DNA of 63,395 bases from a bacterium (GCA_043745785.1 JAYTSG010000033.1:1-63395); one strand, 5' to 3'; positions 1,191-43,938 are shown, counted from the stretch's first letter. Notes: generated by a model not told the origin, from the letters alone. Numbers and translations are program-made.

Positions 1191-1223
1191 ATGTAACTAG
1201 CCTTCTCGTGCTAGCACGTTTGG

Positions 1224-1429
1224 GTGTCCCCAGCAGGGATCTCTCCGACTCGCAACAAAAGGCATAGTCGCTCGCTATGTGCCCAGCATAAACTCGTTAG
1301 TTTAACTGCCAATTTCAAGAGCTTGAATACAAGCTAAGAAATTTGGTAGCCTTCGGTTCTTCACCTGCATGAGGAACTCAGACAAAAGAAAAACATCACA
1401 GGATAAAGTGTTATGTTTTTCTTTTGTTG
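1224..1429 (-). repeat. Insert downstream of tRNA-Lys bounded by an 18-nt exact direct repeat of the tRNA 3' end
   Basis: gtgtccccagcagggatc occurs at 1224-1241 and at 1429-1446 (the latter is the tRNA T-arm/acceptor); internal hairpin 1383-1396/1414-1427. Confidence 0.6.
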
Positions 1430-3791: not shown

Positions 3792-3863
3792 GCTCTCGTA
3801 GTTCAATGGATAGAATATGGGTTTGCGGTACCCACGATGCAGGTTCGATTCCTGCCGAGAGCA
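3792..3863 (+). tRNA. tRNA-Arg (anticodon GCG)
   Basis: Acceptor gctctcg/cgagagc; anticodon loop UUGCGGU; T-arm gcagg-ttcgatt-cctgc. Confidence 0.8.
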
Positions 3864-3958
3864 CAACTGTGTGAGACAGACCGAGGTGCTTAAAAACAAC
3901 ATGTTTTGTATGTAGTTTTAATGGTTTACGAGGTTAACCTAGTATTGTTTACTAGTTT

Positions 3959-4633
3959 TTAAGAGCGTTCTTTACTATTAAGTATTTCTTGTGCAACCCT
4001 ATCATTTTCTTCTTTTGCTTGTTTTAGTGCCTCAGGTATTTTACCGATACTTTCGGCCATGTATGGAAGATCTTCTGCAGTATTTATCAGTGTGTCGTGT
4101 TCGCTGCCCTGCACATAAAACGACACGCCGATGAAGTTGGCGAGTTCCCGAGCACGAGCTAGTTCTTGGAAGCTTCGTACAGTTTGGTTTAATGCAGTGA
4201 AAGAATTTGTCGGTATTGGCAAAGGAATAGGTTTCCTGCCCTGATAGTACATGGAACTAGTTTGTTCACTTTTAAGTGTGATATAAAATGAGCTGTTTTT
4301 ACTCTCAACACCCTGAGTATTTACTGAAGAAGTAATAGTCTGATAAATGAAAACTATGTCAGCATAAGGGTATACAACACAGGTACTACCAACAATTCTC
4401 TTTTTTGTTACAGTTAGAGTTCTGGCGATACTATCCGCAGACACTGAAGTATTTGAGGATAAGAATAGAGCAACCAGCATAAAACAGAAGACAATAAGTG
4501 GAATGGCGACAGGTACAGTCTTTCCTGTTAAGAAAATAAAGAGTGTTATAAGGAAAACACTAGCACCAGTTAATCTTACTGGCCAGGCTGGACTGATGAA
4601 GGTTAATGTTGATGATGTGGGGGATGTTTCCAT
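3959..4633 (-). CDS. Hypothetical membrane protein (N-terminal TM helices)
   Basis: 224-aa ORF with hydrophobic N-terminal third; no recognisable family. Confidence 0.5.
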   Translation of the reverse strand: METSPTSSTLTFISPAWPVRLTGASVFLITLFIFLTGKTVPVAIPLIVFCFMLVALFLSSNTSVSADSIARTLTVTKKRIVGSTCVVYPYADIVFIYQTITSSVNTQGVESKNSSFYITLKSEQTSSMYYQGRKPIPLPIPTNSFTALNQTVRSFQELARARELANFIGVSFYVQGSEHDTLINTAEDLPYMAESIGKIPEALKQAKEENDRVAQEILNSKERS

Positions 4634-4641
4634 GCCAATTA

Positions 4642-5568
4642 TTATTTAACTGTTACTGTTGTTACAGAAGAAGACTGTAGTCTAGTTTTTGTATTTTTTG
4701 CTGTTAAGGTCTTTGTAAGAGTGCAGCCTATAAGGTAGGTATTAATCTTAAAAGAATCTTTCCCAGAAGCTGCAATATCTCGAGGCGGTCTTGTCTCATT
4801 TGACTTTGGATCAACACAACCTGTGGCTGAGTATGTCTCTGTAAGACTGTCAGCACCCGTTGAAGTCCATTCGTAATTCGCCCAATCACCAGCTGTAACA
4901 GTTATTTTGGTTGCTCCATTTGGAAAATCTGCACTTACAGAATAAGATATTATTGGTGCGGTGCCAGATGTTTTGTTGTTATCACTAGCGCCAGGAGCAA
5001 CATTAGCTGCTGTGGTATTCTTAATATAAAAATAATCACTCGTTCCTCCAGAATTATAAACTGTACTTACATTACTAAAAACTAACTGATATTTTTCATA
5101 CTGTTTTCTACTCATGTCTGGAACAGTAAAAGAAAACTTCCCGATTGTCTCGTCTGCATTACCTAATACTGTATCAAACTGGTACGTTGAATCAATAAGT
5201 CTAACTTGATATGAAGGTGCTCTAGCCATTTTGCCAGCAACCCATGTAACTGTATATGTTTGACCTGGCACAAGAACTGTTCCAAAACTTGGGTATGTGA
5301 CTTTAAAAGAAGTCACTTCTCTGTATTCCTCCGGAGTCATATCAGTTTTTGCCGTTTCTTTTACAATTTTTGTTAGTTGCTCGCCATCAGGTAATGCATC
5401 TGATTTAGTGGCAACACTAGCGGGAGTGGTTTGAAGAGCTTGACTATTTTTTATTTGTTTATATTTCCACAAACCCCCGACAGCGAGACAAATGACAAGA
5501 ATTAATACAAAAATTATTTTTTTCATACTATTTATTATATCATTTTTCAGTTCATTTGTCTTAAACAC
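4642..5568 (-). CDS. Hypothetical secreted or membrane-anchored protein
   Basis: 308-aa ORF; N-terminal anchor KKIIFVLILVICLAVGG; Thr/Ser-rich; no recognisable family. Confidence 0.55.
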   Translation of the reverse strand: MFKTNELKNDIINSMKKIIFVLILVICLAVGGLWKYKQIKNSQALQTTPASVATKSDALPDGEQLTKIVKETAKTDMTPEEYREVTSFKVTYPSFGTVLVPGQTYTVTWVAGKMARAPSYQVRLIDSTYQFDTVLGNADETIGKFSFTVPDMSRKQYEKYQLVFSNVSTVYNSGGTSDYFYIKNTTAANVAPGASDNNKTSGTAPIISYSVSADFPNGATKITVTAGDWANYEWTSTGADSLTETYSATGCVDPKSNETRPPRDIAASGKDSFKINTYLIGCTLTKTLTAKNTKTRLQSSSVTTVTVK

Positions 5569-5648
5569 CCCTGACCAAGAGGGTCCAAAATGTGTTTCCT
5601 GAAATTACTAGTAAGCCCTTATAGAGCTTGATTGTATAAAATCCGAGA

Positions 5649-5866
5649 CCGAGCGAGAGCACAGAATATAAAAGACCGAGAAGCCTCTCGGTCTTTTATA
5701 TTCTGTGCTCTCGGAGCAAGCAAACTGCTTTGCTTGCGTCAGGAATCGAAGGGTGGAGCTATGTTTTTCTAGCAAGAAAAACGAGCGAGCCGGGGTCGAG
5801 GAAATTTCGAGTGGCGACGAGAAATTATCCGTGACCGAAAGTGTACTCACATTTCCTGCCGAGAGC
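5649..5866 (+). repeat. tRNA-matched structured module, Arg-type copy
   Basis: 27-bp perfect hairpin 5655-5681/5686-5712; antisense acceptor tgtgctctcgg 5704-5714; hairpin H1 5715-5739; antisense T-arm caggaatcgaa 5740-5750; ccggggtcgag 5790-5800; sense repeat 5853-5866. Confidence 0.7.
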
Positions 5867-9585: not shown

Positions 9586-9878
9586 TGGAAGAGAGGACTC
9601 AGTCACCAAACATATCTTTTACTTTTCTTTTTTAAAGTAAATAAAAAAGATATTTCGCTACATAAGGAAAACAGACAAAATCATTTCACAAAAACACTTA
9701 GGCTAATTTTCGTAAAAATTCCGTAATTAGTTTTTCATTTTGCCTCCTCTTTGTTTGATTTACAGCTTGATAGAGTTTTCCTAGGGATTAATCGTTTACT
9801 ATGAGTAGATTCTTTACTATCTATCTCCCACTAAAAATAAATATCACGAAGCAGGTGCTTCGTGATATTTATTTTTAG
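9586..9878 (-). repeat. Module downstream of tRNA-Val (partial homology to the Leu-type module)
   Basis: 33-bp perfect palindrome 9820-9852/9857-9889; on the minus strand aaaagatatgtttggtgac is followed by a degenerate tRNA-Val 3' copy gagtcctctcttcc (plus coordinates about 9586-9620). Confidence 0.5.
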
Positions 9879-9951
9879 TGGGAGATAGAGGGCTCGAACC
9901 TCTGACCTTCTCGGTGTAAACGAGTTGCTCTACCAACTGAGCTAATCTCCC
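9879..9951 (-). tRNA. tRNA-Val (anticodon UAC)
   Basis: Acceptor gggagat/atctccc; anticodon loop UUUACAC; T-arm agagg-ttcgagc-cctct. Confidence 0.85.
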
Positions 9952-11472: not shown

Positions 11473-11556
11473 GCCCAGGTGGCGGAATTGGTAGACGCAC
11501 TACCTTGAGGTGGTAGCGGGGTTATCCTCGTGGAGGTTCAAGTCCTCTCTTGGGCA
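11473..11556 (+). tRNA. tRNA-Leu (anticodon GAG)
   Basis: Acceptor gcccagg/cttgggc; anticodon loop UUGAGGU; long variable arm. Confidence 0.85.
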
Positions 11557-11815
11557 CAGAGAAATAAAAAACAAAGCTTTGTAGCTTTGTTTTTTATTTC
11601 TCTGTGCCCAAGAAGCAAGTGACCAATGTCACTTGCGTGAGGACTTGAAAGAATTGCCGGTCTACAGCTTTGAGTACTTCGAAAAGTTGTCGGCAATTCC
11701 CGGGGTCGCGAAACAATCTTTTTCTCAAGTCGAAGACGAAAAGAAAAAGATATGTTTGGTGACCAAGTCCTCTCTGTGCCCAAGAAGAAAGCAAACCGGT
11801 TTGCTTTCGTTACCA
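11557..11815 (+). repeat. tRNA-matched structured module, Leu-type copy
   Basis: 30-bp perfect palindrome 11548-11577/11584-11613; antisense acceptor 11603-11613; H1 11614-11638; antisense T-arm 11639-11649; cccggggtcgcg 11699-11710; sense T-arm 11764-11774; second antisense acceptor plus H1' 11775-11810. Confidence 0.7.
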
Positions 11816-12044
11816 AGTCTGATATCCTGATGATATTATTCTAACTATTACACATGAAAATAGTATACAAAGATAATGAATTTTAATCCTTGAAGAAAAG
11901 CCAAATGCAATCTTAATTATTGCTGGGGTATCGCTCGGCTTATTACTAGGTGTCACTAAACATCTTTACTCTGAAGACCCTGAGCTTTTTATTAGCACTC
12001 ATACGCATGTTGGTTTAGGGGCCATTGCTGTATTTCTGTTTGCA

Positions 12045-16699: not shown

Positions 16700-16771
16700 G
16701 TGGCTATAGTGTAACGGTTAGCACTAGGGTTTGTGGAACCCTCAGTTCGGGTTCAAATCCCGATAGCCACA
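16700..16771 (+). tRNA. tRNA-His (anticodon GUG)
   Basis: Acceptor gtggcta/tagccac (a G precedes at 16699); anticodon loop UUGUGGA; T-arm tcggg-ttcaaat-cccga. Confidence 0.85.
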
Positions 16772-16962
16772 CAAAAGTTCAAATCCCGATAAGTATACTT
16801 ATCGGGATTTGAACTTTTGTGTGGCTAAGCAAGCAAACTGCTTTGCTTGTGTGCGGGATTTGAAAGTCCGGAACATGTTTCGCTAGCAAGCGAAACGGTG
16901 AGGAGCGGGAGGCGAGAACTTTTTGTGGCGACAAAAAGTTACTTGCGGAAAAATCCCGATAG
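16772..16962 (+). repeat. tRNA-matched structured module, His-type copy M1
   Basis: 64-nt perfect palindrome 16764-16827; antisense acceptor 16820-16827; H1 16828-16852; antisense T-arm 16853-16864; H2 and H3 hairpins; sense repeat 16951-16962. Confidence 0.7.
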
Positions 16963-17042
16963 AATTTATCTAGATTTTTTGATAAATCTAATTTTATAGA
17001 GACATTGGTATTTAATAAAAATAGGAGTAGAATTAAAGTAGT

Positions 17043-18473
17043 ATGAAAGTAATAAAAATTTTGAGTATCACACTTTCTTTTGTATTAAGTCTTACTTTGC
17101 ATGCTTCCGCTGAAGGTAGTGCTTATACAGATATTATAGGTATCACGCACTACAGTAGCGGAGTAACTTCTCAGACTGACAGTATAGGCAATACGCACCT
17201 TAGTAACGGCGTAACATATTACACCGATTCTATTGGCAATACTCATTATAGTGGAGGATTAAACGGCATTAGTGGAACATCCTATACCGATAGTATAGGA
17301 ATTACACATTTTACATTTAGTGATGGAACTACAATTACAAAAGATACTGATGTAATAGGAAATACCCATTATACAGATAACAAAGGAAGAACAGGAACCT
17401 CATACACTGATAGTATTGGTAATACTTATTTTAGTGGTAGTTTGTTTCCTAGTAGTTGCCCATCGTATCAGGTCTATGATAATGTTCTTAATAAGTGCAT
17501 CATGAAGACTGCCTCCTCTGGTTCAAATAGTAATAATTGTACACAGTCAGAATTACTTTCTATAAAATCAAAATACAATATTGAAACACAGGAACAGCAA
17601 ATTAAAGATTTAAAAAATCAAATAACTGACCTTGATACACAAAGAAAATTGATACCAATTAAGCTCAACGAAGAAATGGTAGGAAGAGGTGCAACAGATT
17701 CAGGACTCGCCCCAATTCTTGCTAGCAGGTTAAGAGAAAATAGTAATAAGGTGACTGCCCTTAATATTCAACTTGAAGATGTATATTTAAAATATACGAA
17801 AGACATTAATTTAGTAAAAGAAGAATGTTATAGTCTTGGTGACAAAGCTTACCACAACACATTGGCTGTAAATACACAAAACAAAACTCAAGAAGTGGTG
17901 GTACCAACAGTAATAGAAGGTGGTTACATACGATGGCAAGATTTGTACTGTGACACTGGATACAACAAAGATATTGCTAACTTAAAATGTATAAGAGATA
18001 ATTCTGTCGCTATATGTTCTCAGAATCCAGACCAAAATGGAAACCTGTCAATGTCTTGTCGTTGTTCTGCGGGTTACAAATGGGCAGGTGGAACTAAGTG
18101 TCAGAAATATAATATCCAAACTGGTGAATTGATTGAAGAAAAACCTGTAACTGTTCAAACTACATCAATAGTCACTTCTACAACAAACAGTATTAACCAA
18201 AATGTAGTAAAAGCTACTTCTCCTGTAACTAAGATTAGTGATCCTTTTTTTACCAGAACCCTTAAAAGGGGAATGTCTGGTGACGACGTAAAACAATTGC
18301 AGACACTTCTTCAAAAGCTTAGTTACTTACCAAACACACAAACCCCTTCAACTTACTTTGGAGGTATAACAAGCAGTGCTCTTATAAAGTTTCAAAAGGA
18401 TAATAAGATACAGCCAGCAACAGGCTCCTTTGGCCCTGCAACACAAGCAAAACTACTCTCTCTAACCAAATAG
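17043..18473 (+). CDS. Secreted repeat protein with C-terminal peptidoglycan-binding domain
   Basis: Signal peptide; about 8 copies of a (Y)TDSIGNTHY motif; Cys-rich middle; C-terminal LKRGMSGDDVKQLQTLL...FGPATQAKL resembles PG_binding_1. Confidence 0.7.
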   Translation: MKVIKILSITLSFVLSLTLHASAEGSAYTDIIGITHYSSGVTSQTDSIGNTHLSNGVTYYTDSIGNTHYSGGLNGISGTSYTDSIGITHFTFSDGTTITKDTDVIGNTHYTDNKGRTGTSYTDSIGNTYFSGSLFPSSCPSYQVYDNVLNKCIMKTASSGSNSNNCTQSELLSIKSKYNIETQEQQIKDLKNQITDLDTQRKLIPIKLNEEMVGRGATDSGLAPILASRLRENSNKVTALNIQLEDVYLKYTKDINLVKEECYSLGDKAYHNTLAVNTQNKTQEVVVPTVIEGGYIRWQDLYCDTGYNKDIANLKCIRDNSVAICSQNPDQNGNLSMSCRCSAGYKWAGGTKCQKYNIQTGELIEEKPVTVQTTSIVTSTTNSINQNVVKATSPVTKISDPFFTRTLKRGMSGDDVKQLQTLLQKLSYLPNTQTPSTYFGGITSSALIKFQKDNKIQPATGSFGPATQAKLLSLTK

Positions 18474-18577
18474 ATTCTGACCACTCATCTGAGTTCTAAT
18501 CCCATCTACGACAGTACACATGTAATAGTAAAAGACTGAGCTTCTTGCCCAGTCTTTTACTTTACACAAAGTGACTA

Positions 18578-18696
18578 TTCGGGATTTGAACCGCTGATTA
18601 GCAAATCACGCCGTGAGGTGATGGCCGCAAGGAGCGAAGAGCGACTGTAGGTTTCGAGCACAGCAGTGCAAGAGGCAAATCCCGATAGCCATACAA
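18578..18696 (+). repeat. Partial His-type module M2 (lacks H1)
   Basis: cgggatttgaacc 18580-18592 is antisense to the tRNA-His T-arm; cgtgaggtgatgg...ggagcgaagagcgac is homologous to the M1 body; ends in sense repeat 18676-18696. Confidence 0.55.
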
Positions 18697-18912
18697 GAGA
18701 AAAAAGACAGCTTACGCTGCCTTTTTGTCTAGCTATCAGTAACAAGATCTAAGTTTTGTTATGTAGGATTTGAAAAGAAAACTGGTATATGGAATGATAT
18801 TTTAAAAATATAATTTTGCTAGTTTTCTCCGGGGTCGAGACTACATGCCAAGATGAAAAAAAGCAAAACTTTTGAAGCGATCCATAGCTGTGACCAAATA
18901 TTCCGATAGTGG
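18697..18912 (+). repeat. His-type module M3
   Basis: H1-like taacaagatctaagttttgttatgt 18740-18764; aggatttgaaa 18765-18775; ccggggtcgag 18829-18839; gtgacc, then degenerate sense repeat 18897-18912. Confidence 0.6.
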
Positions 18913-19009
18913 CACTAATTCATAATTAACTAAAAATATCCTTACATATCAGGAGATTTTTAGCTCCGACATTTGTCTACTCAGTAGAGAATTACATTGA
19001 ATGTCATAA

Positions 19010-19426
19010 ATGGTATACTATTTTTATATGAAAGGATTTATTTCAAATATTGAAAAAGAAACTCTAGAAAATGATGCTTTCCGTAAGGTTTTATACACAG
19101 GAAAACATAGTCAATTAGTTTTAATGAGTTTAAAACCTCAAGAAGAAATTGGCTCAGAGACTCACAATGAGAATGATCAGTTCTTTCGTTTTGAGAGTGG
19201 AGAAGGAAAATGTTTTATTGATGGGAACGAATATGATTTAAGCGATGGTGTGGCTGTCATTATTCCATCGGGCGCACAACATAATATTATTAATATCTCC
19301 GAAACAGAAGATTTAAAATTCTACACAATGTATTCTCCTGCACATCATAAAGATGGAATTATAAGAAAAACAAAAGAAGAAGCAGAAAACAACGAAGAAG
19401 ATTTTGATGGTATGACTTCGGAATAA
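19010..19426 (+). CDS. Cupin-domain protein
   Basis: GSETHNENDQFFRFESGEG...IIPSGAQHNIIN two-motif cupin pattern; real start may be 19028. Confidence 0.6.
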   Translation: MVYYFYMKGFISNIEKETLENDAFRKVLYTGKHSQLVLMSLKPQEEIGSETHNENDQFFRFESGEGKCFIDGNEYDLSDGVAVIIPSGAQHNIINISETEDLKFYTMYSPAHHKDGIIRKTKEEAENNEEDFDGMTSE

Positions 19427-19487
19427 AAAGAAGGATTCAATTATTCAGCACCATACAGCTTAGTTTTAATACCAGCTACAATAGTAG

Positions 19488-19690
19488 ACAAAATTTAAAT
19501 CCCGAAAGGTAAACCTTTCGGGATTTAAATTTTGCGAATACTCATAACAAGATCTAAGTTTTGTTATGTTAGATTTGAGTAAGATATCCGTATTTTCTGG
19601 AGTCGAGACTATGAGCCGAGATAAGAAGGTAAAACTTTTGAAGCGATCCGTAGTGTTGACTAAACATCATAATGATCACACCGTTTTGTG
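19488..19690 (+). repeat. His-type module M4 (paralog of M3)
   Basis: Hairpin 19490-19533 containing ttaaatcccgaa; 25 nt identical to M3 H1 (19546-19570); ctggagtcgag 19597-19607; aaaacttttgaagcgatcc shared with M3. Confidence 0.6.
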
Positions 19691-20122
19691 AGTTCACTTT
19701 GTAGTACAGATATTAAATTAAATTTACCTAAAATATCCTTATGAAAAAATATTTTTTGTTTATAACTTACGTACAGACGTCGTTAGGTATAGAATGTATT
19801 ACAATCACTGAGCTTGATTAAAGGTCTTTTTTCAAAATTCTCAAAACTTTACTGCATTATTATTCTTGTGAAAGCAGATCCAAGACATGATTTAATAATT
19901 CAGAATACAGTATATTTCAGGATAATACTGGACCCTAGTCTCCGTTTAGAGTGACAGCAGGGGATCTTTTGAAAGAGGCCTAATGATTATTTGAAAAATA
20001 GTAGAAAATGACGAGTCAACTATAGAGAGTATTTATACTAGCTATAGTTGGGTGATGTTAGATTTAATTTTAAAAAAGCAAACTTAGACGGACTCTTCCA
20101 TGTGAGTTTGTTTCCAGATACC

Positions 20123-20153
20123 AAAAGGTGGTGTTTAGACCACCTTTCTTTTT
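20123..20153. terminator. Bidirectional hairpin downstream of the P-type ATPase
   Basis: aaaggtggt/accaccttt stem with flanking A/T runs. Confidence 0.6.
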
Positions 20154-20234
20154 AGGGAAGCTGGCTCTCAAAAGTGTACAGCTGACTTATCTTGTAATGA
20201 GGTGTTCATATCTAGTTACGGACTACCTTCAATT

Positions 20235-22646
20235 TTAAAATCGTCTTTTATAAAGAGTTTTAAACAAAGCATCTACTAAGAAGATGGAAAGAGCTGAAAC
20301 AATAATAAGTATCATGAGAGGATAATTAATAGGTATTGTATGTAGAAAAGAATTACCTAAAAAATGATAAAAACTACCTAGTAGTAAGATTGCTTCTACA
20401 GCAATTGCTCCTAAAATAAACCTATTTGAAAAAAGAGAAAAAGAGAAAATAGTTTCATAGTTTTTTCTTACATTGAAAGCATTAAACCAGACGAATGCAG
20501 AAATAAGTAATAGTGTGGCTGTTCTTGCTTCTGGAAGCGAATAATGTTCTGTAAAAAGAGAGAAACCAAACAAAGAGACAGACCCGATAAAAGTTCCAAT
20601 GACGAGTATTTTCATAATGTCATACATGTTTAGTAGAAATCCAGAGTACCTTTTAAAGTTATAGCTTTTAAAAATAATTTCAGGCTCTTCTGTTGCAATA
20701 GAAACATCGAGTAATCCGGCAGTCACAAAATTGAGCCATAAGATTTGTATCGCAAGAAATGGTAATGGTATGGAAAGTGCAAGTGATCCTAGTAGTGCCA
20801 CTACTATGCCAAGAGAGGAGGTCATCAAGAATACTAAAGTCTTTCTAATATTCTCAGAGATGGTTCTTGCTTCAAAAATAGCAAGTGCTATGTCTGAGAA
20901 GTTATCATCTAAGAGCACGAGATCAGAAGCTTCTCTTGCAACTTCTGTACCAGACTTACCCATAGAAATTCCAATATTAGCTAATGAAAGAGCTGGTCCG
21001 TCGTTGACACCGTCACCTGTCATTGCTACCACTTCACCTAACTCTTGCAATATTGTTACTATTCTTTCCTTATGCATTGGGCTAGCACGTGCTATTACTT
21101 TTATTGTATATATTTTCTCTTTTAGTTCTTCGTCATGTAAAGTATCTAAGATATCTCCCGTAATAGAAATGTCATCTTTATGGTTCATGATGCCAACTTC
21201 CTTCGCTACGTATTCTCCAGTTAGAATATTATCTCCTGTAATCACAAGAAGGCTTATCCCTGCTTGCTTGCACTCACTTATAGATTGCTTCACCTCAGCC
21301 CTTATTTTATCTTCAAAGACGACGATACCAATAGGAGATATATTTTGCGTCATAAACTCTGAAGAAGCTGAAAGTTTTTTGTAGCCGACAACCAGAACTC
21401 TAAAACCCTTTTTAGTATATGGAGCAATAATAGCTTCATGAACACCAAGTGCTTCGGGTGACCCTTTGTATATTTGAATAAATGAGTCATCTATCTGGTA
21501 TTCTTTAGCATTATATTTTGCCTCACTTGTGAACGGAAGCTCTTTTATTTCTTTATAGATAAATGAACCTTGTAGATTTTTTTCCAATACAAGATCGAGT
21601 ACGTCTCCAACTTTTTCACCATTAATATTTTTGATATCAATACTATGATAAAGATAATTATTCCAAATTTCTTCAGGAAGATTATTTTTATTAATGTTAA
21701 CAATTTCTTTTACAGACAAATCACCATAAGTAAGTGTTCCTGTTTTATCTGTACAAATAAAAGAAACTGAAGCAAGGGTAGATCCAGATTGTAAATTACG
21801 AAGGAGAGCCCTTGCTCGACTTATGTGAAGTGCTCCTAAAGATAAAACAACAGTAAGCACAACAGGTAATCCTTCAGGTATAACTGCCACTCCTATTGCT
21901 ATGCTTGTTTTTATTGCTGTAGATACATTAACGCCCGTACTAATTGAAAATAATAAAAACAGGATAATGACAAACAAGAGTATAATAAGTAGATAGAGTG
22001 AGAAGGAAGAAAGTTTTTTACTTAACTCAGATTTTTTATCTGCATTTTTAGAAATATCTTTAGCAATAGTTCCTATAAAAGTATATTTTCCAATATTTTT
22101 AATTCGCATAAATGCATTACCAGAAACGATGACACTTCCTCGGTAAAGAGTGTCTTTTAACTTTTTTTCTATAGGCAAAGATTCACCAGTGAGTTGGCTC
22201 TCGTTTACCATGAGCATATGAGACTCAATTAGTTCACCGTCTGCAGGAATAAGATCTCCTGACTCTAGAAAAATAATGTCATCTATCGTCAAGTCTTCTG
22301 TTTTTATGTGTAATAACGTTGTACCCCTTAGAGCTCTTGATTTTGTATGGGAGAGCTTTTTTAAAGCTTTTATGGCATTATTTGCTTTGTATTCCTGCAA
22401 AGTACCAATAATAGAATTTACTATAAGTATGGCCAGAATGACAAAAGTATCAGTAGTCTCACCGCTTATAAATGATAATAATGATACTGCAAGTAATATA
22501 TAAATAAATGGGCTGGCAAATTGCTTTACAAATAAAAGTATGGGGTTATTTTTGTTAGCTTCTGGAAGAATATTTTTCCCATAAATTTCTAAATTTTTCT
22601 TCGCAACATCTTGGGATAGTCCTTCTAAGTTATAGGCTTTGTACAT
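20235..22646 (-). CDS. P-type cation-transporting ATPase (Ca2+/Mg2+-type)
   Basis: DKTGTLT phosphorylation motif, TGDGVNDGPAL hinge, about 10 TM segments. Confidence 0.85.
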   Translation of the reverse strand: MYKAYNLEGLSQDVAKKNLEIYGKNILPEANKNNPILLFVKQFASPFIYILLAVSLLSFISGETTDTFVILAILIVNSIIGTLQEYKANNAIKALKKLSHTKSRALRGTTLLHIKTEDLTIDDIIFLESGDLIPADGELIESHMLMVNESQLTGESLPIEKKLKDTLYRGSVIVSGNAFMRIKNIGKYTFIGTIAKDISKNADKKSELSKKLSSFSLYLLIILLFVIILFLLFSISTGVNVSTAIKTSIAIGVAVIPEGLPVVLTVVLSLGALHISRARALLRNLQSGSTLASVSFICTDKTGTLTYGDLSVKEIVNINKNNLPEEIWNNYLYHSIDIKNINGEKVGDVLDLVLEKNLQGSFIYKEIKELPFTSEAKYNAKEYQIDDSFIQIYKGSPEALGVHEAIIAPYTKKGFRVLVVGYKKLSASSEFMTQNISPIGIVVFEDKIRAEVKQSISECKQAGISLLVITGDNILTGEYVAKEVGIMNHKDDISITGDILDTLHDEELKEKIYTIKVIARASPMHKERIVTILQELGEVVAMTGDGVNDGPALSLANIGISMGKSGTEVAREASDLVLLDDNFSDIALAIFEARTISENIRKTLVFLMTSSLGIVVALLGSLALSIPLPFLAIQILWLNFVTAGLLDVSIATEEPEIIFKSYNFKRYSGFLLNMYDIMKILVIGTFIGSVSLFGFSLFTEHYSLPEARTATLLLISAFVWFNAFNVRKNYETIFSFSLFSNRFILGAIAVEAILLLGSFYHFLGNSFLHTIPINYPLMILIIVSALSIFLVDALFKTLYKRRF

Positions 22647-24395: not shown

Positions 24396-25095
24396 ATGAA
24401 AAAAACTATAAGTACTTTTGTTGCAGGAAGAGTTATTTCTGGTGCCGGTAAAAGAATTGCAACTTTACCGATTGTTGTTATTTTAAAAACAAAGGCTTAC
24501 GGTGTAAATATTATTGAAGCTAATCCTTATTTGAATGTCGATGCAAGAACTATGAATACTAAAGAACGGGGATAATTTTTCGTGCTTGCTGACAGTTTAG
24601 AAACTGATCAAGATATCGGTAATTATGAGAGATTTTTGCGTAAAGATGCTGATTCTTCAGATTATATGACATCGGTATAGCCTACCATTTGGTAGTTGAA
24701 AGGACATCTCTCTTGGATATTAAGGTAATTATGGTGAGACTCTGAGACTTAGTTTTAATACTTGCGAGTTATTTGCAGGAATTATTACAGAAAATAAATA
24801 TCTAAAAAAGAATAAAACCTATATAAATATATGAGAAAAAGACATTTTAGTGATTAGTAAGAGATGTAGATATTGATTTCAAGCAACTATAAAGTTTATA
24901 TTGCTTCTTTCAGAAAAAAATCTTATTTTTCCTATGGTGTCATTAGACAAAAAACTCATGGAGATAGCTGAACTCTCTCATAAAGATGATCTATTTTTCC
25001 TCGATACTTAGTTTCATCCTGAACTCGTAGCTAGAGTGCTTGCTCCGTATCCACTCTTTACAGAATTTTTGAAAGCGTCCATTCTTCAAAAAAAA
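24396..25095 (+). pseudogene. pyrG: Decayed CTP synthase (pyrG) remnant
   Basis: N-terminal GAGKRIATL...ANPYLNVDARTMN..RG*FFVLADSLETDQDIGNYERFL (in-frame TAA at 24573-24575), then frameshifts and a large internal deletion; C-terminal FHPELVARVLAPYPLFTEFLKA preceded by TAG. Confidence 0.65.
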
Positions 25096-34984: not shown

Positions 34985-35017
34985 TACATAAAATTCTTTA
35001 GTTAACAACTTAGAATC

Positions 35018-35046
35018 AAAAAATCTCGCATTCGCGAGATTTTTTG
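35018..35046. terminator. Bidirectional terminator
   Basis: aaaaaatctcgc-attc-gcgagatttttt. Confidence 0.75.
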
Positions 35047-35106
35047 CTTTATGATAGAGTGCTTTCTGTACAGCCCTCGTGGCTGAAATAACATCTGGAG
35101 GCTCGT

Positions 35107-35688
35107 ATGAGCATCAAGAGTGATAAGTGGATACGCCGCATGGCGCAGCAGTCGGGCATGATCGAACCGTTTGAGCCCGGTCAAGTACGCCAGTCGGTCG
35201 ACGGCCAGAAGATCGTCAGCTACGGCACCAGCAGCTACGGCTACGATGTGCGTTGTGGCCCTGAGTTCAAAGTTTTTACGAACATTTTCAGTACTGTGGT
35301 CGATCCGAAGAACTTCGATGAAAAGAGCTTCGTTGACTGGAATGCGGATGATCACGAAGGGGTTTGTGTCATTCCTCCAAACAGCTTTGCACTCGCGCGC
35401 ACGCTGGAGTACTTCCGCATACCGCGCAACGTGCTGACCATCTGCTTGGGTAAGTCCACCTACGCCCGCTGCGGCATCATCGTCAACGTCACGCCTTTCG
35501 AGCCTGAGTGGGAAGGTTACGTGACGCTAGAGTTCAGTAATACGACGCCGCTGCCGGCCAAGATTTACGCTGGTGAAGGCTGCGCGCAGGTGCTGTTCTT
35601 CGAGAGCGACGAGGTCTGCGAGACGAGTTACAAGGACCGAGGGGGCAAGTATCAAGGACAGCGTGGTGTGACGCTACCTAAGGCGTGA
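35107..35688 (+). CDS. dcd: dCTP deaminase
   Basis: [20 protein letters not shown]...[20 protein letters not shown] pattern of Dcd; about 60% GC in hand-counted lines. Confidence 0.85.
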
Positions 35689-35790
35689 TGGGTGAGGTGC
35701 TGTGAGTACCAAAGAAAGGTGAGTCTACGGACCCACCTTTTCTTCTTTCTTACTTTCAGAGTTGACACCTAAAGAAATGTTTTCATAACC

Positions 35791-35822
35791 CAAAAAAAGA
35801 AAGAGGCACCTTTGTGGTGCCC
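35791..35822 (-). terminator. Intrinsic terminator for thyX
   Basis: ggcacc/ggtgcc stem followed on the minus strand by a T run. Confidence 0.6.
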
Positions 35823-35841
35823 CGAGCCAAATGGCTGCTGT

Positions 35842-36666
35842 TCAAACTTTCCAGTATTCAGGAACGAGTGCCCCGTTCACCTCTTTGAAGTCTCCGAACA
35901 GCTCAGGGACGTTTGCAAGCATCTCCTTTCCGACCTTCTTGTAGACGTGAACGATTTCTTCTTCTGCTCCTTCGTTCGTACGGAGTGCAATGATGTGCCG
36001 AAGGGCACGAACATTTAGACTCCAGACACCTCCTGTTGCGATTCCCATGCCGATGCCACGGCGAAAAGCGGAGGTCAGTACTTTCTTGCCATGGAATGTG
36101 CTCGAAGGGTCGAGCTCTTCCTTCCATGTTCCTGCGAAGAATGCCATCATTTCTTCTTGGCTCGTGAACTGGGCAGTCAAGCGTTCTCGGCTAAGCTGTT
36201 TCTTACGAGCAAGTGTCTCTGAGTCGCTAGTTTCTTCTCGAAAGCATTCGGGCATCCAAAATTCAATGTTCTCGTAGCGTACGTATCGCATACTCCGTTC
36301 GGAGATAGCGACGCCTGCGCGATGACGATTGTTTTCTCCCGTGAAGACTCGTGAACAGCCGTTGATGCCGAAAGTGAAGACGGCGTGCTCAAGAACAGAG
36401 CCATGTCGTTGCTTCATGACATTGTCAAGATAGTTAACCATGTCTTTTCTCACCTTGGTGACGTTAGGGTTGAGCCCGGGTTGAAACGACATATAGCACT
36501 GCTTTGCCGCAAGAGCGACGAGGAGTGCGGGGTCAGAGACAGCTTCTTGTTCGGGTATCTCAAACTCGTCTGCCCCGAGATCGTCAAGCCAAAGGCGTAC
36601 AGCTTTGCGGTCAACAACAGTTTTTGCAATTTGGAAGACACGAATTTCGTTAAAGGATGATGCCAT
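35842..36666 (-). CDS. thyX: Flavin-dependent thymidylate synthase ThyX
   Basis: ThyX signature RHRAGVAISERSMRY (RHR-x8-S-x-R-Y). Confidence 0.85.
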   Translation of the reverse strand: MASSFNEIRVFQIAKTVVDRKAVRLWLDDLGADEFEIPEQEAVSDPALLVALAAKQCYMSFQPGLNPNVTKVRKDMVNYLDNVMKQRHGSVLEHAVFTFGINGCSRVFTGENNRHRAGVAISERSMRYVRYENIEFWMPECFREETSDSETLARKKQLSRERLTAQFTSQEEMMAFFAGTWKEELDPSSTFHGKKVLTSAFRRGIGMGIATGGVWSLNVRALRHIIALRTNEGAEEEIVHVYKKVGKEMLANVPELFGDFKEVNGALVPEYWKV

Positions 36667-36834
36667 GATGGCCTCCGTATGGGTTAGGGATTGCGTGTGC
36701 AGAGATCTCTTTTCAGGGACTCTTAAAAAACTCTACTACTTTAAGCTCTATTTTGCAATTTTGTTTATTCTTTTAGCAAGAGTATAATTGCTGGCAAGGT
36801 AGCATTAGGCTACTTTGTTCATTAACTAAACCTT

Positions 36835-37458
36835 GTGAGGACGCAAATGATACACGCAAAATATATCGTTATTGACGGTATTGACGGTGGTGGAAAAACT
36901 AGCCTTTTCTCTTGGCTGAAAACAGTTTTTCCAACAGGAAAGTTTGAATATACGCGAGAGCCCGGAGGAACACCTCTCTCTGAAAAGATTCGCCCACTTC
37001 TTTTGCAGGAACCCATGTCTCCGTACTCTGAAATGTGTCTCTTCATCGCTGCTCGCGAAGACACTCGAAAACAAGTCGTTGCTCCAGCACTTGCGCGTGG
37101 TGTTCATGTCATTTCTGATCGTTCTGATTCTTCTACATTTGCCTATCAGCTTCGTGGAAGAAGACATGAAGACCTGCAAGATCTTTTTTGGAAGATGAGT
37201 GAAAGGATCCACCCTTCGCCGTCACTCTATATCTTTCTTGACCTTGATCCAAAGGTTGCTGCTGGGCGTATGGAAGGGCGAAGAGCGGATAGGTTCGATA
37301 CCGAGAGTATTGAATTCTTTAGAAGAGTGAGGCGAGGTTTTCAGGATTTTGCTGCTCATGTTCAAAGTCCTTGCCAAGTCGTCAGTGCTGAGCATTCACC
37401 AGAAATGGTTGCAGAAGAAGTTCGTGTGCTCATACAAGATCACTTGAGGGGGGAGTGA
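36835..37458 (+). CDS. tmk: Thymidylate kinase
   Basis: P-loop IVIDGIDGGGKT and DR(S/Y) motif; start may be 36847. Confidence 0.85.
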   Translation: MRTQMIHAKYIVIDGIDGGGKTSLFSWLKTVFPTGKFEYTREPGGTPLSEKIRPLLLQEPMSPYSEMCLFIAAREDTRKQVVAPALARGVHVISDRSDSSTFAYQLRGRRHEDLQDLFWKMSERIHPSPSLYIFLDLDPKVAAGRMEGRRADRFDTESIEFFRRVRRGFQDFAAHVQSPCQVVSAEHSPEMVAEEVRVLIQDHLRGE

Positions 37459-37533
37459 TTTCAGACGCAATACAAACAAGAGGGTGGTCAGAAGTGACCG
37501 CCCCTTGTCTTTTTTCTATAATACGATATTATC

Positions 37534-40350: not shown

Positions 40351-43300
40351 ATGGAAGACAAAAAAATAACAATATCAAAGACAATCAATGAAAAAGAACT
40401 TGAAACACTTGCCTTTTGGAATGAAGCAAAGATTTTCGAAAAGTCAGTAGAAACCCCAGCAGGGAGTGCTCCAGTCGGAAACTTTTCTTTTTACGACGGA
40501 CCTCCTTTTGCGACTGGACTTCCTCATCATGGGCATATACTTGCCGGAACCATCAAAGACACCATACCTCGCTATCAGACGATGCAAGGCAAACGTGTGC
40601 GCCGTATGTGGGGCTGGGATTGTCACGGTCTGCCTATAGAAAATCTTATAGAAAAGAAATTAAACTTATCATCTAAAAAAGCTATTGAAGAATATGGTAT
40701 TGATAAGTTTAATCATGAGGCGATGAACTCTGTCCTCGCCTACGATACAGAATGGAAAAAGATAGTGCCGCGTCTCGGTAGATGGGTAGATATGGAACAT
40801 CCGTATAAAACAATGGACGCCACCTATACAGAAAGTGTGTGGTGGAGTTTTTCTGAATTACATAAAAAAGGTTTTGTCTACGAAGGAAATAAAATGATGC
40901 ATATTTGTCCGAGATGTGAGACACCACTAGCACAAAGTGAAGTCGGTCTTGAATACCATGATGTGACGGATATTTCAGTGACGGCTAAGTTTGAGCTCAT
41001 TGATCCTACTACACCGGATAATCATCCTTCTTCTTCTGAAACCCTGAAAGAGTTCAACTCAGAGAATTCTACCAAAAAGACTTATATTCTGGCATGGACG
41101 ACGACACCGTGGACTTTGCCAGGTAATACTGCCCTTGCTGTGAATAAAGGTATCACTTATGTGAAAGTTAAAGCTGTAAAGAAATCAGTATCTGTTAATA
41201 GTATTTCGGATAGAGATGTCTCAGGAGGGGATGATATCGTATGTGTATATTTTATTTTAGCTAAATCAAAATTTCAAGAATATAAAGCTTTTTCGGAAAA
41301 AGATTTTATGATTTTCATAGTCGAAGAAGAATTTTCTGGAGAAAAACTGATTGGAAAATCATATAAACCAGTTTTTCCTTATTTTGTAGATAAAGAAATG
41401 GATAATAGAGAAAATCTTTTCAAAATATGGCATGCAGACTTTATTACTGATGATACTGGTACAGGTATCGCGCATGAAGCGCCAGCATTCGGAGCAGAAG
41501 ATATGGATCTTGCAAAGGAAAATAATATCCCCGTTATAAAGCATGTCAAAATGGATGGCACGTTTACTGTAGAGGTGACTGACTTTGCTGGCATGAAAGT
41601 GAAAGTTAAAGACGATACACAGTCAGCAGACATAGAAATCATCAAGTATCTCGCGTATCACGGGTCACTTTTTGAAAAACATAAAATAATACACTCGTAT
41701 CCATTATGCTGGAGATGTAAAACTCCGCTCCTTAATTATGCGACTAGTTCATGGTTCGTCGATGTTCCAAGTTTTAGAGATAAACTTGTTTCAGAGAATC
41801 AAAAGATTGGTTGGACCCCAGAGCATATGCGCGATGGACGATTTGGTAAATGGTTAGAAGGCGCTCGTGAATGGGCTGTTTCGAGGCTTCGCTACTGGGG
41901 AGCCCCACTGCCTGTTTGGAGAAGTGAGAGTGGAAAAATAAAAGTTATTTCATCACTGAAAGAACTTGCCGAACTTTCTATAACCAAACCAAAGAACAGT
42001 TATTTTGCGATGAGACATGGGCAGTCACTCTATAATACAGAGCAAAAGCTGGACTCCCTTGGTGTGGAAGAAAACGTCCTGACAGAGGTGGGAAGAGAAA
42101 AAATAAAATCTCAAAGAGAAGTATTTAAGAAAGTAGGTATTAATATCATTCTCGTTTCTCCTCTCCCTCGCACGAGAGAGACAGCTCATATAGTAAGTGA
42201 AGGCAGTGATGTAAGTATCATTATTGAGGAGAAGCTTCGTGAGTTTGCCTTTGGAGAATTCGAAGGTAAAAGTTCAGACGAGTTTCATAATCATAAAACT
42301 CTACATGAACATTTAGACGAAAAAGTAGAAAAAGGAGAGTCATTTCGAGATCTTGCTAAAAGATTTATGCAGGTAGTAGCTGAGTGTGAAGAAAAATATG
42401 AAGGTAAAAAAATACTTTTTGTAACACACGGTTCCAATGCATATATGGGTCGAGCTGAAGCTCATTTGTGGACTGATGAAGAAATCTTACAGGGTAACAA
42501 TGAGCTCACTGTCCATAATGGTGAATGTATACCTATAGAAATTAAAATGGTTCCGCGCGATGCCACAGGGGCCGTTAACTTACATCGCCCTTATATAGAC
42601 GATGTTGTTTTAGATATAGATGGTGAAGAGTATAGACGTATTCCTGACGTGTTTGACTGCTGGTATGAGTCTGGCTCTATGCCGTATGCTTCGCTCCATT
42701 ATCCTTTTGAAAATAAAAAGGTCTTTGAAAATAATTTTCCAGCTGACTTTATTGCAGAAGGGCTCGACCAAACTCGCGGATGGTTTTATTCACTGATGAA
42801 CCTTGGAGTTGGTGTTTTTGATAAGTCTCCGTATAAACAAGTAGTAGTCAACGGTACTATTTTGACTGGTGATGGTGAAAAAATGAGTAAAAGTCTGAGT
42901 AATTTTACCGACCCTATGCTTCTTGTGGAAAAGTATGGAGCAGATGCACTTCGTTATTTCTTGCTTTCTTCCCCTGTAGTGAAGGGAGAAAGTATGGAGT
43001 TTCATGATAAAGGAGTGGAAGATGTTTATAAGAAAGTTATTGGTCGCTTAGAAAATGTGGTGTCACTGTATATGATGAATAAAGATGAAGCAGTAACAGC
43101 TAAAGCAGACAGTACGAATGTTCTTGATATCTGGATAGTAAGCCTACTTCATGCCATGCAGAGAAATGTGACTATAGCCTATGATACATATAAACTTGAC
43201 GAAGCAACGAGACCTCTTGAAAGTTTTATCGACAGTCTTTCTGTCTGGTATGTCAGACGCTCAAGAGATAGGTTCAAAGGGGTTCTTGGTGAGCTGGAAA

Positions 43301-43938
43301 AACGTGAGGCTCTCGCTACTCTTAAGTATGTACTGCTCGAGCTCGCAAAAATGATGGCACCGGTTATGCCATTCCTCGCGGAGCGCATATATCTTGAAAT
43401 GGGTGGAGGAAGTGAGAGCGTCCATTTGGAGAAATGGTCGGCTATAAAACCTCTTGTAGATACCGAAGCGGAGGGTGTCAAAAATATGTCTCTCACCAGA
43501 GACTTTGTGTCAGTGCTTTTAATGCAAAGAACCAAAGCAGGTATACCTGTACGTCAACCGCTAGCTAGTGCAACTATCAATGATAGCTTACCTGAAGTGT
43601 ATCTTGAAATTATTAAAGAAGAAGTAAATATCAAAAAAATCCTTATTGATACAAGAGAAAAAGAAGAGGTGTCGATTGAGACGACTATGACAAAGGAGCT
43701 TATCCGCGAAGGAGATATCAGAAATATCATGAGATCTCTTCAAGATACTCGTAAAGAAAAAGGGATGACTCAGGGTGACATGGCGCAAGGAGAAATAGCT
43801 CTCACTCTTACGGAAAGTGAGAGAAATGAAATCATGAAAGTATGTAATCTTTCTACACTTGCTTTTGTTTCCGAAATAGAAAATGCGAATAAGTCTCAAG
43901 TATCTTTTGGTAAGATTTTATTTTCTGTAAAGCTGTAA
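40351..43938 (+). CDS. ileS: Isoleucyl-tRNA synthetase carrying an internal histidine-phosphatase-like domain
   Basis: HIGH (PHHGH) and KMSKS motifs and editing domain; extra segment at about aa 548-735 with RHG, SPLPRTRETA and THG motifs. Confidence 0.85.
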   Translation: MEDKKITISKTINEKELETLAFWNEAKIFEKSVETPAGSAPVGNFSFYDGPPFATGLPHHGHILAGTIKDTIPRYQTMQGKRVRRMWGWDCHGLPIENLIEKKLNLSSKKAIEEYGIDKFNHEAMNSVLAYDTEWKKIVPRLGRWVDMEHPYKTMDATYTESVWWSFSELHKKGFVYEGNKMMHICPRCETPLAQSEVGLEYHDVTDISVTAKFELIDPTTPDNHPSSSETLKEFNSENSTKKTYILAWTTTPWTLPGNTALAVNKGITYVKVKAVKKSVSVNSISDRDVSGGDDIVCVYFILAKSKFQEYKAFSEKDFMIFIVEEEFSGEKLIGKSYKPVFPYFVDKEMDNRENLFKIWHADFITDDTGTGIAHEAPAFGAEDMDLAKENNIPVIKHVKMDGTFTVEVTDFAGMKVKVKDDTQSADIEIIKYLAYHGSLFEKHKIIHSYPLCWRCKTPLLNYATSSWFVDVPSFRDKLVSENQKIGWTPEHMRDGRFGKWLEGAREWAVSRLRYWGAPLPVWRSESGKIKVISSLKELAELSITKPKNSYFAMRHGQSLYNTEQKLDSLGVEENVLTEVGREKIKSQREVFKKVGINIILVSPLPRTRETAHIVSEGSDVSIIIEEKLREFAFGEFEGKSSDEFHNHKTLHEHLDEKVEKGESFRDLAKRFMQVVAECEEKYEGKKILFVTHGSNAYMGRAEAHLWTDEEILQGNNELTVHNGECIPIEIKMVPRDATGAVNLHRPYIDDVVLDIDGEEYRRIPDVFDCWYESGSMPYASLHYPFENKKVFENNFPADFIAEGLDQTRGWFYSLMNLGVGVFDKSPYKQVVVNGTILTGDGEKMSKSLSNFTDPMLLVEKYGADALRYFLLSSPVVKGESMEFHDKGVEDVYKKVIGRLENVVSLYMMNKDEAVTAKADSTNVLDIWIVSLLHAMQRNVTIAYDTYKLDEATRPLESFIDSLSVWYVRRSRDRFKGVLGELEKREALATLKYVLLELAKMMAPVMPFLAERIYLEMGGGSESVHLEKWSAIKPLVDTEAEGVKNMSLTRDFVSVLLMQRTKAGIPVRQPLASATINDSLPEVYLEIIKEEVNIKKILIDTREKEEVSIETTMTKELIREGDIRNIMRSLQDTRKEKGMTQGDMAQGEIALTLTESERNEIMKVCNLSTLAFVSEIENANKSQVSFGKILFSVKL

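Follow-up and report, generated by a model that had tools for sequence, protein, structure and literature searches.

The DNA directly downstream of the tRNA-His gene in a 63,395-nt stretch of a bacterial genome (GCA_043745785.1 JAYTSG010000033.1:1-63395; hereafter "the window") appears to be a tRNA-linked insertion hot spot that holds an apparently undescribed family of tRNA-matched structured elements, here called modules. The favored interpretation, to which we assign a probability of about 0.5, is that the locus is a hot spot of serial site-specific insertion based on duplications of the tRNA-His 3′ end. A chromosomal stretch of low GC content (~38%), the window contains housekeeping genes and eight tRNA or tmRNA genes. 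Its closest relatives by Mur ligase are Patescibacteria genomes from metagenomes, and its host is a member of the candidate phyla radiation (CPR, Patescibacteria). CPR genomes are very small, and gene gain and exchange in these bacteria are poorly understood. In one clade, most 3′ flanks of tRNA and tmRNA genes bear a conserved, tRNA-matched structured element, and it is exactly there that the gene content changes.

The analysis combined ARAGORN, Rfam (15), Pfam, PHROG, a terminator scan, shuffled controls, a covariance model (CM R1) built from six module copies, MAFFT alignments folded with RNAalifold, Logan contigs, and IMG/VR. The flank of tRNA-His was compared with loci L006, L058, L059, L062/L063, L066, and L067/L112. 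L006 and L067/L112 represent one species, and the flanks of L058 and L059 are 98% identical. Species with orthologous modules share 62–85% amino acid identity in their Mur ligases (67% between the window and L066; 85% for L062).

Copies of the tRNA-His 3′ end and the DNA between them

The segment copied across the array is the 3′ part of tRNA-His from the T loop onward, CAAATCCCGATAGCCACAC (site S0). The 12-mer AAATCCCGATAG occurs seven times with at most one mismatch, always within positions 16755-19526, although only 0.29 occurrences are expected in the whole window; seven were reached in 0 of 100 shuffles. The tRNA end at 16754-16777 is directly repeated at 18676-18699 (24 nt, 92%). Read as the putative product of insertion, the array would run tRNA, T1-M1-S1, PG-binding gene-S*, T2-M2-S2, T3-M3-S3, cupin gene-S*′, T4-M4 (T, hairpin; M, module; S, direct copy of the tRNA end; S*, degenerate tRNA-His-like end; PG, peptidoglycan). 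Its parts are as follows.

16700-16772, plus strand: tRNA-His (GTG), predicted by ARAGORN (Rfam tRNA, 65.2 bits); no encoded CCA
16777-16791 (15 nt exact), 16951-16962 (12 nt exact), 18676-18699 (24 nt, 92%), and 18898-18909 (2 mismatches): sense copies of the tRNA-His end
16800-16814, 16854-16864, 18579-18592, 18766-18774, and 19515-19526: antisense copies of the tRNA-His end
16764-16827, no strand: T1, perfect palindrome of 32+32 nt (A-tract, stem, T-tract) in the form of a bidirectional intrinsic terminator
16818-16966, plus strand: M1, an "A" module (H1 type); CM R1 129 bits, E 1e-43; fold z-score -4.3
17043-18473, plus strand: cargo gene 1, secreted repeat protein of 476 aa with a C-terminal PG_binding_1 domain (Pfam) and endolysin-type PG-binding matches in PHROG
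18485-18519, plus strand: S*, degenerate tRNA-His 3′ half (CATCTGAGTTCTAATCCCATCTACGACAGTACAC) that closes cargo 1
18527-18561, no strand: T2, terminator-like hairpin past cargo 1, 15-nt arms
18574-18699, plus strand: M2, a B-type module (no H1); fold z-score -3.3; weak CM match (E 8.8)
18701-18726, no strand: T3, terminator hairpin between S2 and M3, flagged by the terminator scan
18729-18915, plus strand: M3, diverged H1-type module; CM R1 E 0.1
19008-19426, plus strand: cargo gene 2, Cupin_2 protein (Pfam); open reading frame (ORF) at 19010-19426
19459-19489, plus strand: S*′, an S*-like motif (TTAGTTTTAATACCAGCTACAATAGTAGAC) past the cupin gene; core at 19462-19489, in which the halves of S* appear with 2 and 3 mismatches
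19489-19534, no strand: T4, perfect palindrome of 22+22 nt formed by AAATCCCGAAAG and its complement; 80% identical to T1
19533-19690, plus strand: M4, degenerate paralog of M3 that shares its H1 and core blocks; terminal tRNA-end copy decayed; CM R1 E 1.3

The left arm of T1 begins within the acceptor 3′ strand of the tRNA, and the right arm closes with its complement, GTGTGGCTA (16819-16827); the arms are 100% complementary. Perfect hairpins equivalent to T1 are present in L062, L006, L059, and L066, but their interiors are unrelated in sequence. M1 comprises an inverted acceptor copy, hairpin H1 (16829-16849, loop CTGC), the 5′ strand of helix P1 (CGGGATTTG, 16854-16862), and a three-way-junction core (P2, a purine-rich joiner, and P3); the 3′ strand of its P1 is site S1, AAATCCCGATAG (16951-16962). 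M2 consists of an unbroken inverted tRNA end (18574-18592), a core of ~86 nt, and the sense copy S2, CAAATCCCGATAGCCATACAAGAG (18676-18699). Its arms score 30 against tRNA-His and 12 against the best other tRNA. Both M1 and M2 are closed by a long stem of antisense and sense tRNA end. M3 starts with a degenerate inverted acceptor copy (AGCTATC), followed by H1 (18740-18762), TAGGATTTGAA, a core with GGGGTCGAGAC, and GTGACCAAATATTCCGATAGTGGCAC (the degenerate S3). The region 18676-18795 is 81% identical to the His module of L066, which is itself a significant CM match (E 3e-6).

A preliminary description of this DNA had reported that tRNA-His is followed by at least four related modules that alternate with PG-binding and cupin genes, and this layout was confirmed, with four modules; every repeat that it listed lies where it placed it or no more than one or two bases away. 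M3 and M4, which it took for close paralogs, align with 74% identity and have in common an exact 25-mer (18740-18764 and 19545-19569) and an exact 19-mer (18865-18883 and 19631-19649) that occur nowhere else in the window. Also as described, CTAAAA(A)TATCCTTA follows both M3 and M4, and a tRNA-end-like motif follows each cargo gene (AGTTCTAATCCC and CTACGACAGTACAC, both part of S*, at 18492-18519; a degenerate form at 19462-19489). The stretch of ~500 nt without an ORF past the cupin gene was found as well (no ORF of at least 50 aa in 19427-20234), and its part from 19745 to 20235 (~490 nt) matched none of the fetched loci.

Foreign DNA joins exactly at tRNA-end segments, either at the tRNA end itself (a 15.2-kb island in L112 and a 1.8-kb insert at tRNA-Arg) or at the S site of a module (GATAG|, the bar marking the join), and each insert is closed by a further tRNA-His-like end (S*). 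L006 and L067/L112 are 99.7–99.8% identical through Mur ligase and tRNA-His. In L006, the tRNA gene is followed by T, module A, a gene for a 124-aa membrane protein, S*, and then ArsR, rhodanese, and MBL genes. The 15.2-kb island of L112 lies exactly at the tRNA-His end of this arrangement, and homology resumes at the T hairpin (93%). The island encodes a NucS-like protein, a large serine recombinase, a type I restriction-modification system, a ParB-methylase, and other proteins. The recombinase of L067/L112 (436 aa, with Resolvase, Recombinase, and Zn_ribbon_recom domains) is encoded 1 kb from the junction (2249-3559 in L112). The junctions read ..GGCACACC|TAACG.. on the left and ..GTCACACC|AAATACAG.. 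on the right, with AAATAC at the right join; in longer form, they read ..GATAGGCACACC|TAACGTTG.. and ..GTTCAGTACCGAGACGTCACACC|AAATACAG... The island is flanked only by the repeat CACACC, and its right end resembles the tRNA end in 15 of 24 nt. One class of event is, as the sequence of this island indicates, tied to a large serine recombinase.

The insert at tRNA-Arg(GCG) (gene at 3792-3864; region 3865-5866) consists of 1.8 kb with two minus-strand orphan genes and lies between the tRNA and its displaced 3′ remnant. It has pushed the old tRNA end, palindrome, and module 1.8 kb away; in L062, the modules are located directly behind tRNA-Arg. Its end motifs (left ..AGACCGAGGTGCTT.., right ..CCGAGAC..CACA|) are like those of the serine-recombinase island of L112.

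The second type of junction occurs in the window, L006, and L062, where T and an A module ending in ..ATAG| (GATAG|) are followed by unrelated genes, each segment closed by S*. The genes at this site encode the 476-aa PG-binding protein in the window, where the inserted DNA begins right after S1 (16962|16963), the 124-aa membrane protein in L006, and a 269-aa orphan in L062. S* has the form CTCAGTTC, a deletion, and TAATCCC.TCTACRACAGTACAC. That of the window is 97% identical to L066 9419-9453 and 89% to L006 3527-3563, whereas both its flanks are unrelated in the three genomes. The bases just past S* equal the trailer of the genome's own tRNA (CACCAAA in L006, CACCAA in L062), as would be expected if S* and these bases formed a hybrid junction. 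L066 and L062 share downstream DNA (AATCGAGAACATC..), which lies behind an intact S in one and behind S* in the other; the two types of site are therefore interchangeable neighbors. L058 and L059, nearly identical in their flanks, differ by whole units: only L059 has an additional T+A unit, with direct S repeats on its two sides, and an additional gene (C15 peptidase) past module B. The preliminary description had named an invariant, syntenic locus as the observation that would speak against serial insertion; the arrangement is not invariant across these relatives.

A conserved element of ~75 nt (..GAAAATAGACCGAG..hairpin..GCGGTTC..GTCGAAAA) is present at the left end of inserted islands (L006 3565-3650, L067 11510-11600, and the window 3865-3900) and could represent either an att arm or a small RNA. 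The more distantly related L109 (18469-22073) contains, by its sequence, another serine-recombinase island beside a tRNA in these bacteria: genes for a DUF4238 protein and a 430-aa large serine recombinase lie behind tRNA-Ser(GCT) and a second tRNA-Ser-like gene (anticodon ACT).

The same observations bear on the improbable alternative that the locus is a graveyard of classical integrative elements (prophage, integrative and conjugative elements [ICEs], or accretion like that of cis-mobilizable elements [CIMEs]), in which the modules would be decayed attP arms and the tRNA-end copies old attL/attR scars, with nothing recombining today. Direct repeats of the tRNA 3′ end around units, such as the 23-nt repeats around module B of L058, would fit this explanation, as would the degenerate copies S3, M4, and S*′, the lack of a recombinase gene in the window, and orphan cargo genes typical of decayed islands. 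Scars, however, are not expected to keep a core that is conserved and covaries between tRNA genes and species. The 97% identity of S* between genomes with only 67% amino acid identity in Mur ligase likewise argues against it, as do the differences between strains of the same species at these sites and the breaks in the assemblies of several samples.

These breaks were also considered as a sign of assembly artefact, which the preliminary description had itself named as a way in which the array could prove spurious. On either side, ten independent Logan contigs match the window at 100% identity; no independent contig covers 18589-19835. Contigs identical to the window end or start at 16793/16798 (the center of the T1 palindrome), at 18588, and at 19836-19890. 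At 18588, where the perfect left arm of M2 has its last base, two Logan contigs from two samples end; at 19836-19890, five contigs from different runs all end, possibly a sign of strain variation or low coverage. No other contig carries the cupin protein, whereas its neighbors were found in three to six samples. Many Logan contigs from many samples, and contigs of 54, 98, and 5 kb, stop at or shortly past tRNA-His. Chimeric joins or collapsed repeats at the palindromes would explain the missing span and the breaks at 16793/16798 and 18588, but this explanation can hardly be credited: up to each break, the window is matched at 100% identity by independent Logan contigs from several runs, its architecture recurs in the separately assembled L062/L063, L006/L112, and L059, and no k=31 graph can remain unbroken at a perfect palindrome longer than k. 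As such palindromes and repeats systematically interrupt short-read assemblies at tRNA genes, tRNA-adjacent cargo is under-represented in metagenome-derived genomes.

A family of modules matched to their tRNA genes

A Logan contig that starts at a second perfect palindrome, beside tRNA-Leu, exposed the same unit behind other genes of the window.

11548-11825, plus strand: tRNA-Leu(GAG) unit (gene 11473-11557); perfect palindrome of 31+31 nt that includes the acceptor 3′ strand, full H1-type module, and partial second unit; CM 97 bits
5654-5713 (palindrome) and 5704-5866 (H1-type module), plus strand: tRNA-Arg(GCG) unit with the displaced tRNA-Arg 3′ remnant; CM 124 bits
60044-60269, minus strand: tmRNA unit; perfect palindrome of 31+31 nt (60204-60269) and module (60044-60214); CM E 8e-4
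9820-9889: tRNA-Val unit; palindrome and degenerate module
1223-1428, minus strand: tRNA-Lys unit; H1-less module flanked by a 19-nt direct repeat of the tRNA-Lys 3′ end (GATCCCTGCTGGGGACAC)

All units follow a common plan: a T hairpin, the complement of the tRNA acceptor 3′ strand, often a 9-bp H1 with a conserved loop, the P1 5′ strand, the core, and S. The inverted acceptor copy begins the module, and the terminator palindrome therefore reaches into the tRNA. The P1 5′ strand is the complement of T loop and T stem (CGGGATTTG at tRNA-His); in the core, hairpins P2 and P3 are joined by a purine-rich strand (GAGCGAGCCGGGG), and the base of P3 is conserved (GGTCGAG.. / ..TGTGACC). Site S repeats the tRNA 3′ end directly, starting in the T loop (CAAATCCCGATAG), and in some cases runs on into CCACAC and the trailer. 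Since the S copies carry trailer bases past the mature tRNA end and lack CCA, they were copied at the DNA level from the gene, and a retro-copy of the mature tRNA is excluded. An antisense or permuted tRNA gene was also rejected: ARAGORN finds none, and the inverted arm is a perfect complement of the 3′ strand rather than a copy of the 5′ strand, as is evident at tRNA-Leu, where the tRNA has a G.U pair and its module an A.

In 14 of 14 cases, no other tRNA of the genome fits the arms as well as the local one (e.g., GAGGACTTG / CAAGTCCTC, which match the T arm of tRNA-Leu, and CAGGAATCG / ..TTCCTG at tRNA-Arg), whereas the core is common to different genes. The name "His-type modules" used in the preliminary description thus holds for the four modules at tRNA-His only by location; they are not specific to tRNA-His but belong to a general family of tRNA 3′ flanks whose arms are rewritten for each gene. 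CM R1 detected 20 significant copies in the window and six related loci, located behind tRNA-His, Leu, Arg(GCG), Arg(TCT), Ser, and Val, but nothing convincing in 49 loci of more distant bacteria. Each copy either is located 17–47 nt downstream of a tRNA or tmRNA gene, on that gene's strand, or follows another copy in tandem. The modules are a family restricted to a narrow clade of Patescibacteria, where they occur behind most tRNA and tmRNA genes. Rfam returned only tRNA and tmRNA at the gathering threshold and only hairpin-driven miRNA noise at E values up to 10. In four scans of IMG/VR for a viral origin, three module or S* patterns had 0 matches, and a core pattern had 33 chance matches, 0 of them confirmed by the CM. 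The family is apparently undescribed, judged against known systems from general knowledge. In a region of the window beside the tRNA-Leu unit (11.6-13.5 kb), the DNA is not common to L062.

The structure of the modules is better conserved than their sequence. In an alignment fitted to CM R1, which biases the statistics towards the structure, 89% of cells are paired, compared with 65% in shuffles and 35–48% in slid controls, and 26 of 31 pairs have changed on both sides. Covariation is strong in H1, P1, P2, and P3. RNAalifold recovered the same helices from a MAFFT alignment of six sequences, with three compensatory H1 pairs between orthologs. Orthologs of M1 with compensatory changes occupy the same place in L062, L006, and L059, i.e., in four species including the window. 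The T hairpins (T1, T4, and the Leu, Val, tmRNA, and Arg palindromes) consist, by inspection, of an A-tract, a perfect stem, and a T-tract, and their form predicts that they are bidirectional intrinsic terminators.

The covariation is compatible with a second explanation, which is unlikely but deserves serious attention: the modules may be structured non-coding RNAs of tRNA transcription units, with a role in processing, termination, insulation, or as a decoy but none in recombination, and the array would have arisen from islands at tRNA genes and duplication of units. It would account for all copies being on the strand of the tRNA and for the maintenance of orthologous copies across species whose Mur ligases are 62–85% identical; moreover, inspection of the sequence suggests that the acceptor-like and T-like helices could stack like a tRNA minihelix. 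On the tRNA strand, G.U pairs outnumber A.C pairs (33 versus 14), but 13 of the 33 come from a single conserved position (13 of 15 sequences), without which the excess is weak (20 versus 14). Other features fit poorly with an RNA. Each module starts right after the T-tract of a strong terminator, with no room for a promoter of its own. Watson-Crick pairs make up almost all of H1 and the T hairpins, an unusual composition if stems are selected only as RNA; no Rfam family matches, and cargo junctions exactly at S are left unexplained. Hammerhead and other small-ribozyme junction motifs, checked by eye, do not fit, and an RNase P motif match in M1 (GAAAGUCCGG) is not conserved in its orthologs.

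The distribution of the modules could also suggest selfish repeats, similar to miniature inverted-repeat transposable elements (MITEs), that home to the terminators at tRNA ends and obtain their arms by copying the target on insertion, with the cargo being unrelated. The modules are multi-copy and clade-restricted, they occur in tandem, and their presence varies by species (modules at tRNA-Ser and tRNA-Arg(TCT) are present in L058 and absent from the window). Yet every locus has different terminal repeats, a search for a transposase found none, orthologous copies persist stably from species to species, and we know of no transposition mechanism that makes an inverted and a direct copy of 10–25 nt of its target. 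Such an origin is very improbable. An inverton (invertible promoter switch) was rejected, because the 22 modules listed are all oriented the same way with respect to their tRNA.

Possible mechanism and known systems

Because each unit carries S, an extra copy of a segment like the tRNA attachment site is located downstream of the tRNA. Serial site-specific insertion at such copies could proceed by recombinases encoded elsewhere that act on S-type sites, such as the large serine recombinases of L067/L112 and possibly others. Segments ending in an S-type site would then be added, exchanged, or lost by deletion between direct S repeats, as the difference between L058 and L059 suggests. In the least secure step, pairing of the inverted arm with S would most likely let one strand refold into a duplex copy of the tRNA-end site and thereby present or regulate the site, in the manner of integron attC or CTX-phage attP sites.

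Taken by itself, the idea that a strand refolds into a duplex mimic of the tRNA-end site, by analogy with attC or the attP of CTX phage, is distinctly speculative. It nevertheless explains most of the features and would account for arms that track the local tRNA, for the conservation of structure over sequence, and for the place of the modules behind terminators and at segment boundaries. In a broader proposal, only slightly less doubtful, a new cassette system docked at tRNA genes and served by recombinases encoded elsewhere in these tiny genomes would use the modules as its recombination sites; each module would refold, as single-stranded DNA or as a cruciform, into a duplex copy of the adjacent tRNA 3′ end, a tRNA-programmed counterpart of attC or CTX attP. 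Only the two arms around the three-way-junction scaffold, itself constant, would have to be rewritten to retarget a module to a new tRNA. As recombination sites, the modules would constitute a compact, reprogrammable docking system for single genes that is of interest to genome engineering; as RNAs, they would represent a new class of tRNA-linked structured RNA.

Several observations weigh against serial site-specific insertion. There is no recombinase, integrase, or transposase gene in the 63-kb window (Pfam, 49 ORFs) and no mobility gene in any of the small cargo segments (PHROG, Pfam). The recombinase gene is tied to only one type of junction (CACACC|) and not to GATAG|. Local alignment of the left ends of the cargo with the reverse complement of S* was no better than with shuffles and revealed no attP-type dyad. 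All copies have one orientation, although a recombinase acting on inverted arms is expected to invert some of them. The location of the modules behind strong terminators and the conserved G.T pair (13 of 15 sequences) would be compatible with a role as transcribed RNA. M1, finally, is an old resident that was inherited rather than recently inserted. In S*, the GTTC.AATCCC motif is 6 nt further from the junction than in S, a shift that presumably resembles the difference between attP and attB half-sites and is taken as a lead only.

Comparison with known systems, made from general knowledge, places the array closest in behavior to tandem accretion at a tRNA gene (islands, ICEs, integrative and mobilizable elements, and CIMEs). 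Copies of the tRNA 3′ end bound successive segments and flank them as direct repeats, as in tRNA-targeting islands, the content varies by strain, and an integrase-bearing island occupies the same tRNA gene in a sister strain. Unlike in such accretions, most segments are only 0.2–1.7 kb long and carry no integrase; the only integrase gene is that of the L067/L112 island, outside the array of the window, and it encodes a large serine recombinase instead of the usual tyrosine integrase. In addition, the tRNA-end copies form part of a conserved structured module, which is present also at other tRNAs without cargo.

In layout, the array resembles that of an integron, whose cassettes consist of one mostly promoterless gene and an imperfect-palindrome site. 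As in integrons and clusters of attC sites lacking an integrase (CALINs), single-gene segments each end in an element like a recombination site, and the content differs by strain; like attC, the modules are imperfect palindromes of ~110–190 nt with a branched center whose structure is kept better than the sequence. However, the array fails the defining tests of an integron. IntI and attI are absent by a Pfam scan of the 49 ORFs of the window, and the R″/R′ core motifs of attC (RYYYAAC / GTTRRRY) are absent by inspection only: the module ends read ..CGGGATTTGAA.. and ..CAAATCCCGATAG, and GTTCAAA does not fit GTTRRRY. The sequence of the stem is dictated by the neighboring tRNA, and S*, which closes the gene segments, has no fold-back partner. 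Compared with a cassette, cargo 1 is followed by S* and M2, the content varies by strain or species, and the cargo has promoter-like blocks. The "serial insertions, or a cassette array, at one tRNA" proposed in the preliminary description stands as strain-variable insertion between tRNA-end copies, but M1 is an old resident, the window has no integrase or integron-type machinery, and the attC core motifs are lacking.

The promoter-like blocks are represented by the 20-nt sequence AAATGGTATACTATTTTTAT ahead of the cupin gene (19008-19027), which precedes different genes also in L066 (8544-8563) and L062 (12945-12964). With an extended -10-like TGGTATACT a few bases upstream of ATG and its position before three different genes in three genomes, the block suggests a leaderless or short-leader expression of inserted genes. 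The cupin gene probably starts at the second ATG (19028) and not at 19010.

The attP(+) site of CTX phage, an integrative mobile element exploiting Xer (IMEX), contains two inverted dif-like sites ~90 nt apart whose single-strand fold mimics the target, so that the host XerCD recombines it with dif. The modules likewise contain inverted target copies 85–110 nt apart (85–88 nt in M1, M2, and L006) that may refold into a duplex copy (predicted fold z-scores of -3.3 to -4.3), and in both cases serial integration would regenerate the site and build arrays. Their target, however, is a tRNA 3′ end and not dif, no phage genes are present, and there are no signs of XerCD. Similarity to elements with large serine recombinases is limited to L112, where a Resolvase/Recombinase/zinc-ribbon protein, a precise insertion, and the short repeat CACACC agree with the expectation for a 2-bp crossover. 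No such gene is present in the array of the window, and the GATAG| joins lie 6–7 nt from the CACACC| join and may need a different enzyme. Like repetitive extragenic palindromes (REPs), bacterial interspersed mosaic elements (BIMEs), and MITEs, the modules are short, multi-copy, structured, and non-coding and lie just behind genes near terminators. Unlike them, they have arms matched to the adjacent tRNA and are strictly confined to the 3′ flanks of tRNA and tmRNA genes; no gene for a REP-associated tyrosine transposase (RAYT) or other transposase was seen.

Other features of the window

Cargo gene 1 contains six internal repeats of 48–63 nt. Synteny could be followed through the gene for a P-type ATPase, and no further arrays were reached. 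A class I aminoacyl-tRNA synthetase of 1195 aa (40351-43938), IleRS-like by its domains, has a His_Phos_1 domain inserted at residues 553-695. The region 35000-37500, with genes for dCTP deaminase, ThyX, and thymidylate kinase, reaches a GC content of 47–52%, compared with ~38% elsewhere, and is possibly acquired DNA. At ~24396-24575, gene calls on identical Logan contigs include a fragment of 59 aa that has the N-terminal domain of CTP synthase; beside the same ATPase, a relative (L108) encodes a full CTP synthase of 535 aa, and the fragment in the window is probably a remnant of pyrG.

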